Virus record (IMG/VR): IMGVR_UViG_3300037762_000068
Location: 1 to 33,638 of that record
Direction: 5' to 3' (one strand)
Origin: a virus
Lineage: Duplodnaviria; Caudoviricetes
Length of the DNA stretch: 33,638 bases
Below the pieces are notes generated by a model. It was not told the DNA's origin. It was given only the letters and a program-made list of their open reading frames with translations, and made no database searches. Shown here in pieces: positions 2,485 to 29,880 of this stretch (within the stretch, counting starts at the first letter, position 1; every line of letters starts with the position of its first letter). Both the position numbers and the translations under genes were made by a program.

Positions 2485-2912
2485 GATGCCACCTCGCGCC
2501 AGTACCGCGCGGCCAGCGCAGCGAGCGTGCGCCACTCCTGGCCTGCCACCCAATCCCGGAACACGCGCACCGTCGTCTCGCTCCCGTAGCCGTCCACGAG
2601 GTCGTGAGCCGCACCACACGCCGGTACCATTAGCCGACCATCGTCGGCACTCAGGTGGGCCGCGGTGTGCCAGAGGCCCCTGCTGCCTGGTCCGCACTTC
2701 TCATGGCCGGGACCTGAATAAGCGAACGTCACGCAGAAGCACTCAAGGTCGCGGATCGCGTCGAACTCGGGCCCATAGCGTGGGTCGTCCGCGTGGACCT
2801 CGGAGAAGCAACGGGCCTCCAGGGGCGTCCTGCGCTTGAGCCCCTCGCGCGAGCGGTCCTGCCATGCGCGGATCTTCGCGGGGTCAGCGCGGAGCGGGGT
2901 GCGGCGCTTCAT
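2481..2912 (-). CDS. Putative Zn-binding HNH-like/DUF968-like nuclease
   Basis: MKRRTPL start; CFC...C...H..AHL...MVPAC...H pattern; ATGA-coupled at both ends. Confidence 0.55.
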   Translation of the reverse strand: MKRRTPLRADPAKIRAWQDRSREGLKRRTPLEARCFSEVHADDPRYGPEFDAIRDLECFCVTFAYSGPGHEKCGPGSRGLWHTAAHLSADDGRLMVPACGAAHDLVDGYGSETTVRVFRDWVAGQEWRTLAALAARYWREVAS

Positions 2913-3340
2913 CCGTCCATCCGGGTCAAAGCGTTCTGATGCGCGATGGCGGAGCGGTCGAGCTCGATGAGCGTCCTGATGCGCCAGTATTCGTTGTTCG
3001 CCTTCTCGCGGTTCTCGATCGCTACCGCCGTGCCCTTGATGTGGTCGCTGAATCTCTGGTCGGCGCGGGCGAGGCGTTCAAGCTTGGCTTCGCTCAGGCC
3101 CTCCTTCGCGTGCGTCACCGCGTACTCGCTGGCGAGACGGGCGAGCAACGACTTCGTCTCGTTCTCCAGTTGGTAGGCGACGGCTAGGGCTCCGGCGCGA
3201 ACGTTGCCGGCCGTGTCGAGCCGCTCCACTAGGTCGTAGGGATCGTGGCCGATGTGGATGGCCAGCATCTCGCGAGCGCTGTCGGGTGCGTGCGGCTCCC
3301 TTGAGGGGCGCCGTGCCTTGAGCTCTTCGGTGCGCGTCAT
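2909..3340 (-). CDS. Helical/coiled-coil hypothetical protein
   Basis: Likely start MTRTEELK at 3340; ATGA-coupled downstream. Confidence 0.7.
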   Translation of the reverse strand: MTRTEELKARRPSREPHAPDSAREMLAIHIGHDPYDLVERLDTAGNVRAGALAVAYQLENETKSLLARLASEYAVTHAKEGLSEAKLERLARADQRFSDHIKGTAVAIENREKANNEYWRIRTLIELDRSAIAHQNALTRMDG

Positions 3341-3537
3341 CGTTCTATCTGAGGCGCAGGCGACCCCGTCCCCGTCGAGTAGGGCATGGTACCCGCTGGA
3401 AGCTCTGTCATCGCCCATTCTTCCGTGGTGTGCCTCCCCGGTTCGCCAATTACGCCGGGGCCTCCGTGGCCTTGCCTACGGAAACGCCAGCGTGCGTTGC
3501 TCTCGCCAGTCCTGCCTTGGGTACTGCTCTTCGACGG

Positions 3538-4346: not shown

Positions 4347-5227
4347 GCCTCCTGGCTTTCCAGTTCCACAGGAATGGACTCGTCATAAATACGCTCGCGG
4401 GGAGTCCGGCCCGCGAAGTCGTCAGTATCGCTTTGCCACACTCTCATGAACGCGGCGGCGCGAAATACCTTCCACAGCCGGTCCTCGACCTCGGGATTGA
4501 TCGGATGCAGCGTCGCCTTGTTCGGCTCGACGTGGACGATGCCGAGCCGGTCCACGAGGCCCTGCCAGGGGATGACCTTGCCCGTCCACTTCGCATCCGT
4601 GCCCTCAGCCTGGACGATGGCGTACTCGGCGTGCTTGTATGCGACCTGTTGGACCGCGTGCTCAGCGTAGATCCCGGAGCTCGATTTCCAATCGAGAATC
4701 CACGACTCCCCGTCGTGGATGTCCCAGAGATCGAACGTTCCCGCGTAGCCGACGGTGTGATTGAGCACCGTGATCTCGATGCCGAGGATGCGGGAGGCGC
4801 GAGCCTCCAGGAAGTGCGTCGCTGCGCTGGCGCAAGCGGCCTCGTCCTCCGTCATCGCGGGCAACTCGGCCTTGCGAGCGAACGCCTCGATGGCGTCGTG
4901 TATCGCGGTGCCCCGGTCGCCCGCGTCGTCGCGCTTCGTCCACGGCGAGCCCTTGAGCAGCTTGACGGCGTTCGTGCGGTCGAGCTTCTCCCACGACTCG
5001 CGGTTATCGTAGGCGAACTCGGCTACCGTCTTCGCGGCCCAATTGCCCATCCAGTCCTTGGGGATGCCACGAAGCAGCGTGGTGACGCGACGGAGGAAGT
5101 CGCCATTCACTCGGTAGCCATAGCGGTCAAGCGTCACTTCGACGGTGCGTGCGGACTCAAGATCCTTCATGACGCTACGCAGCCTGTCCGCCGTCCCGAC
5201 CTCCGGCGCTTCCTTCGTTGCTGTCAT
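4343..5227 (-). CDS. PD-(D/E)XK exonuclease (RecB/Cas4-like phage family)
   Basis: RGTAIH...E...GYAGTFD...ILDWKSS...QQVAY motifs; start MTATKE at 5227. Confidence 0.85.
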   Translation of the reverse strand: MTATKEAPEVGTADRLRSVMKDLESARTVEVTLDRYGYRVNGDFLRRVTTLLRGIPKDWMGNWAAKTVAEFAYDNRESWEKLDRTNAVKLLKGSPWTKRDDAGDRGTAIHDAIEAFARKAELPAMTEDEAACASAATHFLEARASRILGIEITVLNHTVGYAGTFDLWDIHDGESWILDWKSSSGIYAEHAVQQVAYKHAEYAIVQAEGTDAKWTGKVIPWQGLVDRLGIVHVEPNKATLHPINPEVEDRLWKVFRAAAFMRVWQSDTDDFAGRTPRERIYDESIPVELESQEA

Positions 5228-25678: not shown

Positions 25679-27100
25679 TCACGCCCGAGCGGCCAAGAGC
25701 ACGATGGGCGACAGGGTGTCGGATGACTTGTTCGGCGTGAGCGCGGCTCTCCACCACGGAGCACCGGCGTTCCTGAGCCAGAACTTGAACGCCCGCTCGT
25801 GCTCAACGAACCGGACGTGGACCGACTCGGCCGACTGAAGCGGCTGGTAGAGAGCCTCCAGGTACTGGCTGAAGTTCACGAGCGCGATGTCACCCGCGTC
25901 CCCCACCTTGTCCATGTACTCGGAGTAGAAGACCGGCCGGCCCCAGAGCATGTCGGGGAACCGCTCCTGCTGCGCCGGCTGGTAGAGCAGCACGCCGCCG
26001 GTCCCGATCGGGATCGAGAGCACCGCGAGCTGCGGGCGCGTGTCGTGGTTCGCGAGCCAGATCGCGTTCCCGAAGCCCCAGCACCGGGCCGCCATCTTGA
26101 TGATGTTGTTCGCGACGATCGTGTCCGCCGCCTGGCCGGTTTCCTTCGCGACCGAAATCGCCGCCGCCGAGTTCTTGAATCCGAGGAACTCGTTCCCGCC
26201 CCCCCCGCGGATCTTCTCGTCCAGCATGTGCGCGGAGAACTGATCCCGGAACCCGGCCGCGATCATGGCCACGAAGGTCAGCGCGGAATCCACCAGGATC
26301 TCCTCGGTCGCGTAGGCCAGCCCGAACAGGCTCGACGCCTTGAGCGTGATCTTCTCGAGCTCCATCCGAGACGATGACGCGGCCACGGTCTCGGGACGCC
26401 TGGTCACCGTGAGCCCACCCGACACGCTCGTGGTGTGGGTCTTGTCCGTCCGGGCCGAGATCTCGACCGAGGGCGTGACCATCGGGACGGCAGTCGTGCG
26501 GCCGGCCGTGGGGTCGCCCTCGAACGGCGTCGAGAGCATCCCGGGGAGGACCGTGGTCGGCACGGCGAACCCGCCGTAGCGGTCGTCGTAGCCACCCTGC
26601 TCGTCCGATCCGGCGGCGGCCAAAAGGCCCCGCGGAGTGAACGCTTCGGGGAGCATGTAGACGAGCCCGCCGGCAGCGGCCTTGTCCTCCCTGTCGAGGA
26701 CCGCCAGCGGACGGAGCCGCTCGTCCTCCACGCTCGCTCGTTCGCGGGCGCCGGCGTTGTTCATCGCCGACATGAGGAAGTCGCGGTGGGAGCGGAATCC
26801 CTTGCGCGGATCGTCCTCGGCCCGGAGCCGCCCGACCCGCGTGTCCGTGCCCGCGACCTGATCGCGGACAGGCCCGGCGCTGCCGAGCTCGGCCAGCCGC
26901 TCGTTCTTCTTGGCCTCGTCGTGATACGCCGTCTTCGCGGCGGTGATCTGCACATCGAAGACGTCCTGGGCCGACCGCTCCTCGGCGCTGAGCTCGCGGC
27001 CCTCCTCTTCGGCCTTGGCCTGGGCGGCGGTGAGGGCGTCGTTCGCCTGCTTCACCAGGCCGTCCCACTTGGCCCTGAGCTCGTGGATTCGTGCGGCCAT
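25679..27100 (-). CDS. Major capsid protein, HK97 fold with N-terminal coiled-coil delta domain
   Basis: Start MAARIHELR at 27100; GGFAVP, TEEIL.DS, L.GRPV..SE, GDI.L.NFSQY motifs. Confidence 0.93.
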   Translation of the reverse strand: MAARIHELRAKWDGLVKQANDALTAAQAKAEEEGRELSAEERSAQDVFDVQITAAKTAYHDEAKKNERLAELGSAGPVRDQVAGTDTRVGRLRAEDDPRKGFRSHRDFLMSAMNNAGARERASVEDERLRPLAVLDREDKAAAGGLVYMLPEAFTPRGLLAAAGSDEQGGYDDRYGGFAVPTTVLPGMLSTPFEGDPTAGRTTAVPMVTPSVEISARTDKTHTTSVSGGLTVTRRPETVAASSSRMELEKITLKASSLFGLAYATEEILVDSALTFVAMIAAGFRDQFSAHMLDEKIRGGGGNEFLGFKNSAAAISVAKETGQAADTIVANNIIKMAARCWGFGNAIWLANHDTRPQLAVLSIPIGTGGVLLYQPAQQERFPDMLWGRPVFYSEYMDKVGDAGDIALVNFSQYLEALYQPLQSAESVHVRFVEHERAFKFWLRNAGAPWWRAALTPNKSSDTLSPIVLLAARA

Positions 27101-27143
27101 TTCGTGTTCTCCCGGTCGGTCGGCGCCGGGGATGGCACACACG

Positions 27144-27208
27144 AAAAAGCGCGGGTGACGGAATCCCGGCGCCCGAAGTGGTTTCGGGTCACCGGCCGTC
27201 ACACGCGC
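27144..27208 (-). terminator. Long stem-loop followed by U5 (terminator/attenuator-like)
   Basis: Arms 27149-27161 and 27196-27208 pair 12/13; TTTTT follows on the minus strand. Confidence 0.5.
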
Positions 27209-27350
27209 GAGCTTGGCGGCGTGGGTCTTCGGCCTTCTCGGGTCAGCTCACCGGCGCTCAGTGGAGGCCGGGGTGTCGCCGCCCGCTATGTTCTACGCCT
27301 GCATTTTGGGGCCTCGCCCGTTTCCCGTCAAGGCCCCTCCCAACCAACAC

Positions 27351-27523
27351 CCTTTGACTTTGCTCGGCTTCGGTTCGCTAGGCTGCGCTCGGCTCAGCAG
27401 GGCTGCGCTCCGCTTCGCAGTGCTTTGGATTCTTTGACTTTGCTAGGCCCTGCTAGGCTTTGCTGGGCTGGGCTTCGCTGCGCTCTGCTCAGCTGTGCTT
27501 CGCTACGCTGCGGATTCTTTGAT
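27351..27523 (-). ncRNA. 5-nt-period array (NN-AGC)n in two units, putative guide RNAs
   Basis: 27 in-register pentamers (14+13), separated by TCAAAGAATCC; starts right after the stop at 27524. Confidence 0.8.
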
Positions 27524-28033
27524 CTACGCCGCCTCGTCGATCGCTGTGAACACCGCCGCCAGCGCCGGAACGGCCTTCACGAGTACCTCGCGGTACACCT
27601 CATACCGGACCTGAAACTCCCGGAGTCGGGCCAGCGCCTCGGACAGGACTTGCTCGGCCAGGGGCTCCGAGTCGCGCACCTGTTGGATCGTCACGTACTG
27701 GCGGCGTATCGCGCCACCCGCCGGGGTCACCGTGGCCACCGTGACCGAATGAAACGCCCTCACGGCTCGCCGCCCGCTCGCGGTCTGGACGTTAACGAGA
27801 ATCGCGCCGGCCATCTGGCGCGCACGGTTACGGTACCACGACTCGGCGACCTCGTCGAGCGGCCGGTCCATCTGCAGGTGCCGCCGTAGGGGTGTCTCGT
27901 TCGCCCTCGCGTACTCCACGATTTCGACAGGCGAGCTTGCTCCCGACTCAGCCAGGGCGGCCAACTCCGGACCGATCTCCTCCGCGTCTTCGTCGCTGAA
28001 CGGCGTTCCGGGTGCTGCAAAGTACTTGGCCAC
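27524..28033 (-). CDS. Helical partner protein of the RAMP-like gene (phage hypothetical)
   Basis: GTG at 28033, 1 nt after the upstream stop, with GAGGAGG RBS; P.EIVE.AR....PL..H.......A..WY...ARQ....I motif. Confidence 0.8.
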   Translation of the reverse strand: MAKYFAAPGTPFSDEDAEEIGPELAALAESGASSPVEIVEYARANETPLRRHLQMDRPLDEVAESWYRNRARQMAGAILVNVQTASGRRAVRAFHSVTVATVTPAGGAIRRQYVTIQQVRDSEPLAEQVLSEALARLREFQVRYEVYREVLVKAVPALAAVFTAIDEAA

Positions 28034-28034
28034 C

Positions 28035-28667
28035 TCACACCTCCTCGATCTCGGCGCCCTCGATCTCGAACCTTCCGTATTGCCCACCGTTCTCGACGCG
28101 GAAGGAGCCGATCCCAACCGTCCGCCCGGCGAGCATCAGTAGGTGCAGGAATGTCTCCTGGCTGAACAGCGAATGCTCGAACTCGACAACGAACTCCATG
28201 GCCCACCTCTCGTATTTGGGACGATGCACGATTGTCCACGTCCCCTTGATCCGACCGGGACGGGTATCTCTGACGGGCCTCGGTCCCTCGATGGGGATGA
28301 GGTCGCTGCCCGGGACCATGACTGTGACGGCGCCCTTGATCGCCGGCCCCTTCTTCGCCCAGCCCTCACCCATGCGATGGCCCGCAGACGCCATCGCTTC
28401 CACAATGGACTCCAGGGGGTGGCCGTAGACGACCTTCCCGTTCTTGCTCACGGTCGCTGCTTCGAGGATCTCCGCCACTTCCGCGTCGGGGTCCCGCGCC
28501 TCCCTCTTGTTCTTGGCCTTCCCCTCCTGCTTGCCACGCATTCCCTCAATCACCGTCGGACGCCACCGGTTCTGCATGAGCGGGGTGAGCCCCCGGATCC
28601 GCACCTTCATCCTGCCCACGTTCGGAGCGGGGAGCGCGATCGTCTTCGTGGCCTTTGTCTTTGCCAT
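28035..28667 (-). CDS. Stand-alone RAMP/Cas7-like RNA-binding protein (210 aa)
   Basis: ATG at 28667 with AGGAGG; N-terminal strand VRIRGLTPLMQN, P.ES...AM helix, C-terminal Gly-rich loop GIGSFRVENGGQYGRFEI. Confidence 0.75.
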   Translation of the reverse strand: MAKTKATKTIALPAPNVGRMKVRIRGLTPLMQNRWRPTVIEGMRGKQEGKAKNKREARDPDAEVAEILEAATVSKNGKVVYGHPLESIVEAMASAGHRMGEGWAKKGPAIKGAVTVMVPGSDLIPIEGPRPVRDTRPGRIKGTWTIVHRPKYERWAMEFVVEFEHSLFSQETFLHLLMLAGRTVGIGSFRVENGGQYGRFEIEGAEIEEV

Positions 28668-28720: not shown

Positions 28721-28750
28721 AATCTACCGACAGGCCGCCGAACTAGTCAA
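28721..28750 (-). promoter_or_regulatory. Sigma70-like promoter TTGACT-18-TAGATT for the RAMP operon
   Basis: Hexamers at 28745-28750 and 28721-28726 in the divergent intergenic region. Confidence 0.6.
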
Positions 28751-28792: not shown

Positions 28793-29029
28793 GTGAACCG
28801 AGAAGCCGTGAGTATGCTCATCCAGCGCGTACTATCCGACGGTCCGTTCTCCATGAACGAGATCGCCCGCGAGACGGGGTTGAGCTACGACGCACTGCGC
28901 TCGTGGGCCACGGGGCGCCGCATGCCACGCCGAGAGAACATGGAAAAGCTCGCCGCCTACCTGGAGAAGCACGGCAAGCGCCTACAGGACTTCGCGGCCG
29001 AAGTGCGCGTGCTGGCGGAGGAACCCTAG
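28793..29029 (+). CDS. XRE-family HTH regulator
   Basis: SMNEIARETGLSYDALRSWATGRRMP...KLA; start GTG 28793 or ATG 28814. Confidence 0.85.
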   Translation: MNREAVSMLIQRVLSDGPFSMNEIARETGLSYDALRSWATGRRMPRRENMEKLAAYLEKHGKRLQDFAAEVRVLAEEP

Positions 29030-29880
29030 CCCCGCGCCCTCGCCCGCTTCCGGGCCCCCGAATCCAGCGCCGCTGCCTTGCCGGCCCGCTCGCGCCCCAT
29101 CTGCGTCGCACGCTTCACCGCGTCCTCGATCGTCCCGACGTGGTCCGCCATCCCGATCGAGACTGCCTCTTCCGCACCGTAGACCCACGCGCCCCACTCC
29201 GAGCGAATGGTCTCGACGCCGACGCTCCGGCCGTTCGCGCTTCGGCCACGCTTCACGGCGCCGACGAACATCCCGTAGTACCGCTCGATGTCGAGGGTCA
29301 TATCCTCCAGGGCCTCATCGGAGAGCGGCCCGAGGGGGCTGCCCTCGACCTTGCCCTCACCGGCGGACACGAGCGTGACCTTGATGCCCATCTGATCGAG
29401 CGCGACGCTCCAGTCCTCGTGTGCTCCGAGGATGCCGATCGAGCCGATCTCGCCGGACGGGGTGACGAAGACCTCGTCCGCTTGGCTCGCGATCCAGTAC
29501 GCAGCCGATGCGGCGAGGGAATCCGCTGCGGCCACGATCGGCTTCCCGCCGCGAGCAGCCCGGATCTCGGCACCTAGCTCCTCGATCCCGTAGACCTCGC
29601 CACCGGGCGAGTCGATCTGAAGCACCACGGCGCGCGAGCCATCGGCCATCGCGTCCCGGAACGTGGCCCGCGTTCTCTCCACGGATGTGCCGAACCAGCC
29701 TCCGCGCTGCGTGAGGAGCCCCATCACAGGGACGATCGTCACGTCGCCCGCTTGCTTGGCCGCACCCCGAGCCGCCCACACATCCGACGACGCCACGAGG
29801 TCGCCCGCCGCGATAGCGCGAAGGTAGGGGAGGGTGACCGCCCAGAGGCGAGAAGTCGCAAGGTCAGCCGTTTCAAGCAT
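29026..29880 (-). CDS. Prohead protease, S49 (SppA/ClpP-like) family
   Basis: IDSPGGEV, AASAAYWIAS, GSIG motifs; follows portal. Confidence 0.92.
   Translation of the reverse strand: MLETADLATSRLWAVTLPYLRAIAAGDLVASSDVWAARGAAKQAGDVTIVPVMGLLTQRGGWFGTSVERTRATFRDAMADGSRAVVLQIDSPGGEVYGIEELGAEIRAARGGKPIVAAADSLAASAAYWIASQADEVFVTPSGEIGSIGILGAHEDWSVALDQMGIKVTLVSAGEGKVEGSPLGPLSDEALEDMTLDIERYYGMFVGAVKRGRSANGRSVGVETIRSEWGAWVYGAEEAVSIGMADHVGTIEDAVKRATQMGRERAGKAAALDSGARKRARARG

Follow-up and report, generated by a model that had tools for sequence, protein, structure and literature searches.

How does an array of five-nucleotide steps, in which one triplet is nearly constant and the two bases between its copies vary, come to lie among the head genes of a tailed phage, and what might it specify? 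This question is raised by IMG/VR virus record IMGVR_UViG_3300037762_000068 (Duplodnaviria; Caudoviricetes), of which we analysed positions 1 to 33,638 (33,638 nt; hereafter the window). The element is an uncultured tailed phage of 67% GC to which contigs of sediment metagenomes align, and its capsid matches in cultured phages are only 29-33% identical. Its terminase, portal, S49 protease and major capsid genes are all on the minus strand, and between the head protease and capsid genes is inserted a cassette comprising a helix-turn-helix (HTH) gene, a promoter-like site, a vipr gene, an accessory gene and the array (Table 1). We find that the cassette is, as judged from its sequence, a VIPR system with two predicted guides; both this class of system and non-GGY scaffolds are already in print.

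Structure and setting of the array

On the minus strand the array (27352-27522) parses into a unit of 85 nt and one of 80 nt. Both begin with the separator TCAAAGAATCC, which starts at 27522 and again at 27437, and go on for 14 and 13 NN/triplet steps respectively; a third, partial separator begins at 27357. AGC fills 23 of the 27 triplets, the others being GGC (once), TGC (twice) and ACC (once), and the two units share a 13-mer (plus strand, 27352 and 27432). The initial annotation had described exactly this arrangement, including both series of NN dinucleotides, and we recovered it in full. The "AAAG-TCA" end further parses as AGC-AA-AGT-CA, which makes AGT an extra AGY unit within the separator; the guides have 13-15 units each. 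In 12 of 12 consecutive 5-nt steps the same triplet recurs; no other part of the window exceeds 5 such steps, and 20 shuffles reach 5-7. The repeat pattern is not due to chance. The separator, 15 nt long and A-rich, is unpaired in folding, and a structured 3' tail of about 40 nt after each guide is absent. The array region has no match in Rfam.

One contig from sequencing run X1, possibly the source of the window, spans the array. It is also spanned by a contig of a variant strain from run X2 (a different study code from the same year and habitat), which has no listed difference over 27281-27546 and differs in the leader (27197-27280) at 11 listed places plus gaps. As the array is unchanged despite this diverged leader, it is real DNA and no assembly artefact. 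Contigs of related phages from runs X1 and X5 share the capsid leader (window 27161-27314) and diverge before the array, and one of the run X1 contigs rejoins the window near 29877.

The array begins 1 nt past the stop codon of the upstream accessory gene. Beyond its other end lies a second promoter-like site, both hexamers and the spacing of which recur with a different spacer in a relative's contig (run X5), and which is overlapped by a hairpin that may end or cap the array transcript. The divergent HTH gene is likely to be the regulator of the cassette. A homolog of its product (P0184) and a Vipr homolog (P0006) each come from a 5121-nt contig, which hints that the regulator travels with the cassette. 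The cassette itself moves, since in the nearest fetched relative (locus L004) the same two genes and an array stand behind a different upstream gene. At the far end of the window, 12-nt tandem repeats at 1-150 (12.5 copies) and 1015-1363 (29 copies) lie within minus-strand ORFs and encode tetrapeptide repeats of the VRDQ/VRAQ and WAAA/WDAA kinds.

Table 1. Features of the cassette and its flanks, in window coordinates
Feature	Position	Strand	Basis
Major capsid protein, flank	25679..27100	-	annotation by profile
Promoter-like site TTGACG-17-CAAAAT, toward capsid gene	27303..27331	-	promoter-pattern scan
GC-rich hairpin, 20 nt past array, overlapping the promoter-like site above	27308..27337	-	27270-27357 folds at z=-2.7
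Terminal partial separator TCAAAG	27352..27357	-	array parse
Unit 2, predicted guide RNA of 80 nt with separator, 13 NN/triplet steps and A-rich end	27358..27437	-	array parse
Unit 1, predicted guide RNA of 85 nt with separator, 14 NN/triplet steps and A-rich end	27438..27522	-	array parse, vrRNA-like grammar
Accessory gene, vap-like, 169 aa	27524..28033	-	co-occurrence of family with vipr; PHROG 15946
vipr gene, 210 aa, minimal RAMP/Cas7-like	28035..28667	-	PDB 36pp, E=2.5e-12; Cas7/Csm3 folds; PHROG 4652
Codon of Ser188, aligned to SUSP1 Asp177 (G1 reader, G-loop)	28104..28106	-	profile alignment
Codon of Arg149, aligned to SUSP1 Arg138 (G2 reader), retained	28221..28223	-	profile alignment
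Promoter-like site TTGACT-18-TAGATT, 54 nt ahead of vipr	28721..28750	-	2 sites found, 0.2 expected
XRE-type HTH gene, divergent	28814..29029	+	Pfam HTH_3, E=2.5e-6
S49 head maturation protease, flank	29026..29880	-	annotation by profile

Affinities with VIPR systems

VIPR, published in 2026, is a CRISPR-like RNA-guided DNA silencer composed of a vipr and an accessory gene together with vrRNAs that consist of 9-16 GGY/NN pentamers, the NN of which pair with DNA such that every third base is skipped (10.64898/2026.04.26.720920). When the 210-aa protein of the window and eight homologs were combined into a profile, its sole PDB match was the Vipr of phage SUSP1 (36pp; E=2.5e-12), and a predicted model of the protein (pLDDT 75.5) matches Cas7/Csm3 chains. 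These comparisons identify the product as a predicted minimal stand-alone RAMP homologous to Vipr. The locus also has these sequence features of VIPR: a tandem array of pentamers, and a vipr and an accessory gene in a phage, with no CRISPR repeat-spacer array or other cas gene among the annotated neighbours. The vipr-vap-array layout and the 13-15 pentamers per unit likewise agree with the published description. The Methods of that report list NNNGG, YNNNG and NNNNG as alternative consensuses (10.64898/2026.04.26.720920); AGC/NN fits YNNNG and is therefore of a kind already known. No relative of this Vipr was retrieved from GTDB genomes.

The proposal in the initial annotation that the NN positions store information is supported by the match to the published vrRNA grammar and by the adjoining Vipr gene. 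It also withstood the check for invariant NN in homologous arrays: L004, whose Vipr is 71% identical, has an array in which the AGC triplet is kept and the NN differ, and the near-identical strain has the same NN as the window. AGC and vipr are on one strand in every one of the 14 long loci from the AGC scan that have a Vipr, so the RNA would read AGC and not GCT.

The accessory gene belongs to a family with 32 of its 40 HMM matches in loci that have a Vipr hit. Its protein matched no Pfam or PDB fold, only hypothetical Atlas clusters and one unnamed viral model (E=2.4e-5), and against the gene that phage Moogle has in the vap1 position the hhalign probability was 0.3%, with no detectable relation to the SUSP1-type vap1.

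The clade that contains the window's Vipr is supported and has 25 representatives, of which 23 have G-type arrays; the accessory-gene family marks the same clade. Staggered spacing of 5n-1, as illustrated in fig. S18 of 10.64898/2026.04.26.720920, occurs in at least 10 of the 14 listed loci that share this accessory gene; the units of the window are 5n without the 1-nt overlap. The separator sequence is absent from all 323 fetched loci. Given that L004 has 69-nt units with other A-rich linkers, the separator is a local feature and the cross-unit register is not conserved. The meaning earlier attached to a 5-nt register running across units accordingly finds no support, as most relatives with the accessory gene show 5n-1 spacing and the L004 units are 69 nt. 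A different junction is seen in locus L064, where a long staggered AGC array (2495-3074, vipr strand) has GGC at every junction (AGCA|GGC); this suggests that the junction letter is constrained separately from the scaffold.

Residues of the guide-binding pocket

In SUSP1 Vipr, according to the available passages of its description (10.64898/2026.04.26.720927), G1 is held by H17 and D177, G2 by R138 and W178, and Y3 by R179 and its neighbours, and the D177A mutation abolishes silencing. A comparison of the equivalent columns in the window's Vipr showed that: 1) both G1 readers are changed, H17 to N33 and D177 to S188. 2) The readers of G2 and Y3 are kept as R149, F189 and R190, with Phe189 and Arg190 aligned to SUSP1 Trp178 and Arg179. 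3) The Asp177 column holds Ser in eight of nine listed close homologs of at least 40% identity, the window's own protein included, and Ala in the ninth. The changed readers are those of position 1, the same letter that differs in the array (AGC versus GGY). What the locus adds to the published record is, at the level of aligned residues, this pairing of an AGC scaffold with Ser in place of the G1 reader Asp177. The literature searched held no account of AGC scaffolds tied to pocket residues, although subscription journals, figures and bioRxiv supplements may bear on the point.

Co-variation of the triplet and the acidic residue

To compare loci, Viprs were gathered by homology, by a scan for AGC arrays (22 of 125 loci with a Vipr) and by a matched-control scan for GGC arrays (84 of 139). 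The 147 Vipr hits included 11 without the G-loop column and four without an array; the other 132 were used and were dereplicated at <70% identity to 87 representatives, of which 66 G-type and 15 A-type make up 81 loci. An acidic residue (D/E) at column 177 is found in 55 of the 66 G-type and none of the 15 A-type representatives (Fisher p=9.5e-10, without kinship correction; the A-type loci were mostly found via the AGC motif search). The remaining representatives are five with mixed arrays (5/87), all with Asp, and one with a CGC array and Asn. The AGC scan itself, which was set at eight perfect AGC/NN steps, also returned 103 loci (among L036-L160) with no Vipr hit nearby, including 66 of the 80 with long flanks; some of these may be solo AGC guides and others simple repeats.

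Before dereplication 17 G-type Viprs were exceptions to the rule. Ten have Thr at the 177 column and Asp at the H17 column, three are fragments that lack the H17 column, and four form one clade with Arg at 177 and Phe at the R138 column. From the aligned residues, the G-reading acid seems to have moved in one clade. Among Viprs with GGC arrays, those of L192, L197, L214, L217, L223, L225 and L234 combine Thr at the Asp177 column with Asp at the His17 column, so that the acid appears to have moved from the G-loop to the beta-sheet; in those of L172, L174, L175 and L258, where Arg occupies the Asp177 column and Phe the Arg138 column, an arginine has possibly changed place. A two-column rule (acid at 177 or 17), framed after these exceptions to the prior rule of D/E at 177 alone had been seen, holds for 56 of 58 G-type and for none of nine A-type full-length representatives.

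We then asked how often the change had occurred, using a tree of 67 full-length representatives from which the three trait columns had been dropped. The A-type state needs eight changes on this tree, six of them forced by well supported branches, and A-type as a single clade appears in none of 200 bootstrap trees and is rejected (AU p=0.00014). Hence the paired change, to an AGC triplet with loss of the acid, is likely to have arisen at least six separate times, to judge from the phylogeny. The six independent pairs agree, with p about 0.03 under the two-column rule and p=0.0625 under D/E at 177 alone. Twelve further loci from two lineages, fetched via the accessory gene, all have D or E at the column, and GGY arrays occur in all 11 in which an array was detected.

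Other columns were less informative. The H17 column alone does not separate the classes, Asn being present in both. A basic residue two positions before the thumb arginine is found in 54 of 58 G-type and none of nine A-type representatives, but reaches only p=0.0625 in independent pairs and is missing in SUSP1 and L312; we keep it as a lead only. A counter-example outside the 67-tip tree is L005, with Asp at column 17, Asn at column 177 and yet a CGC array. This locus carries CGC/NN arrays (3458-3523 and 4680-4930) with repeated hairpin-like separators, together with the window's accessory gene family. Asp-bearing Viprs also accompany arrays of mixed first letter, as in phage Moogle, whose units include AGT and TGT.

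These data bear on whether the acid selects the first letter or its loss merely relaxes position 1, such that NGY is accepted and the bias toward A comes from array homogenisation or constraints at the RNA level. Relaxation would fit the GGC, TGC (twice), ACC and AGT tolerated in the window's array, the GGC at each junction of L064, and the variety of residues at 177 in A-type Viprs (N, C, G, T, S, A), which looks more like loss than a new contact. Against it, the 14 A-type representatives in which the residue is non-acidic have A at position 1 in 77-100% of their units, and the arrays that are in fact relaxed and mixed accompany Asp (12 of 13). We therefore regard relaxation as rather unlikely, and retain the view that Ser in place of Asp probably retunes the pocket.

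Searches for targets

A scan of the window against itself at skips of 0-3 gave best non-self matches of 17-19 of 28-30 positions. Exact gapped scans of viral contigs with unit 1 gave no hits, and one in a second scan (18/30 overall); with unit 2 they gave two hits (19-20/28) and five in a second scan (18-21/28). Unit 1 had no hit in an exact gapped scan of GTDB genomes. The hits of the five scans (0, 2, 0, 1 and 5) have flanks that match no better than chance. As an exact match over 16-20 bases was required, in collections from which close relatives are nearly absent, this outcome weighs little in either direction. The best hit, in locus L164 (21/26 without the terminal AA), was rejected as a target, because the search pattern itself fixed 16 of its bases and a score of 21 was also reached by one of ten shuffles. 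Guides compared as codon prefixes with 174 proteins matched at best 6-7 of 13-14, and none matched as anti-vipr or anti-vap. For 65 AGC guides against 2 Mb of fetched DNA there was no excess over shuffles at skip 0, 1 or 2, this database being too small for a test of the skip rule. The gapped search suggested by the initial annotation corresponds, in its one-skip form, to the published VIPR rule, and yielded no target above chance.

The lack of one-skip targets could mean that this VIPR decodes differently from SUSP1, by another skip length or by acting on RNA. The exact-match demand and the scarcity of relatives in the collections could themselves account for such a result, and the thumb arginine and G-loop are conserved, which makes altered decoding improbable. 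A decaying relic, the triplet and Asp of which drifted after function was lost, would equally leave no target; this we consider more improbable still, as both genes are intact behind a promoter-like site, Ser recurs in the close homologs, the array is unchanged in a variant strain with a diverged leader, and L004 keeps AGC with new NN. The long plus-strand ORF (26435-27889) that covers the array might finally point to a microsatellite or coding repeat without an RNA role. This reading we consider virtually untenable: the ORF runs antisense to both the capsid and the accessory gene in DNA of 67% GC, the period is 5, variation is confined to NN, and vipr lies next to the array. The window's ORF list shows no minus-strand ORF of at least 50 aa over the array.

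Functional implications

The array is, in our judgement, probably the guide-RNA locus of a phage VIPR. What we observed is the array, the relationship of the adjacent gene to vipr, how the operon is arranged, which residue occupies the column of the G1 reader and how this residue co-varies with the triplet across loci. That the RNA is expressed, that filaments form, that every third base is skipped and that the target is repressed is carried over from the SUSP1 and P. fulva papers, by analogy with which it would apply to this locus. The operon would be transcribed from the site at 28750, and the A-rich separators would stay unbound and mark cut points that release two guides. Each AGC triplet would be gripped by one Vipr subunit, leaving the NN exposed for a predicted pairing with two of every three bases in the DNA of a rival element, which would thereby be silenced. 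Ser at the position of the Asp that reads G1 likely shifts the preference of the pocket from G to A, and the target would be a competing phage or satellite of the phage's host.

A wider proposal, which we offer tentatively and with less conviction, is that the first scaffold letter is a switchable protein-RNA code, in which an acid at 177 (in one clade, at 17) selects G and its loss selects A, and between the states of which phages have switched at least six times. Solo GGY guides of satellites divert the SUSP1 Vipr, according to the available part of a further report (10.64898/2026.10.15.759431), and a changed scaffold code would block this diversion. A switch of scaffold would thus shield a phage from solo-GGY hijack by satellites or rival phages, and may explain the repeated origins; systems that ignore GGY guides would also form a natural orthogonal pair with those that read them, for multiplexed DNA targeting. 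So far the mechanism of VIPR is known in detail from just two systems, both GGY, and a scaffold change linked to a residue offers a one-residue test of guide reading. The repeated occurrence of this change points to Vipr-guide pairs that are orthogonal to one another and offers a reason for scaffold diversity.

Comparison with known systems

With the Cas7/Csm3 backbones of class 1 CRISPR systems the window's Vipr shares the RAMP fold with thumb and G-loop; it differs in that its annotated neighbours include neither a repeat-spacer array nor other cas genes, and its specificity would be non-contiguous. Scaffolds other than GGY are known from 21 clusters of non-canonical triplets beside Vipr-like folds (GAC/NN, CAC/NN, WGT/NN and TGH/NN) in the accessible passages of 10.64898/2026.10.21.760802; AGC is absent from the text of that report and these passages name no link to pocket residues, though its fig. 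S10 may list AGC. The substitutions listed for fig. S12B of 10.64898/2026.04.26.720920 include GGY>AGY, and the available text of the latter states that perturbing GGY abolished silencing.

The type II VIPRs of Escherichia phage SUSP1 and a Pseudomonas fulva prophage (10.64898/2026.04.26.720920 and 10.64898/2026.04.26.720927; PDB 36pp) have a homologous Vipr and share with the window the R138/aromatic 178/R179 set, a phage-borne two-gene operon and an array downstream of it. Unlike them, the window has N33 and S188 for H17 and D177, has no 40-nt pseudoknot tail between units, and carries an accessory gene with no relation to the one that Moogle has in the vap1 position.

The staggered-array VIPRs of the YNNNG type (10.64898/2026.04.26.720920) resemble the locus in having a vipr, one accessory gene and short tail-less pentamer units, and the window's Vipr and accessory gene group with 1-nt-staggered loci such as those of Gordonia phage UmaThurman, Mycobacterium phage Saal and cyanophage Cy-LDV1. 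From these the window is set apart by AGC instead of GGY, by units of 5n, by Ser at the Asp177 column, and by an A-rich separator in place of the GCA|GGC overlap.
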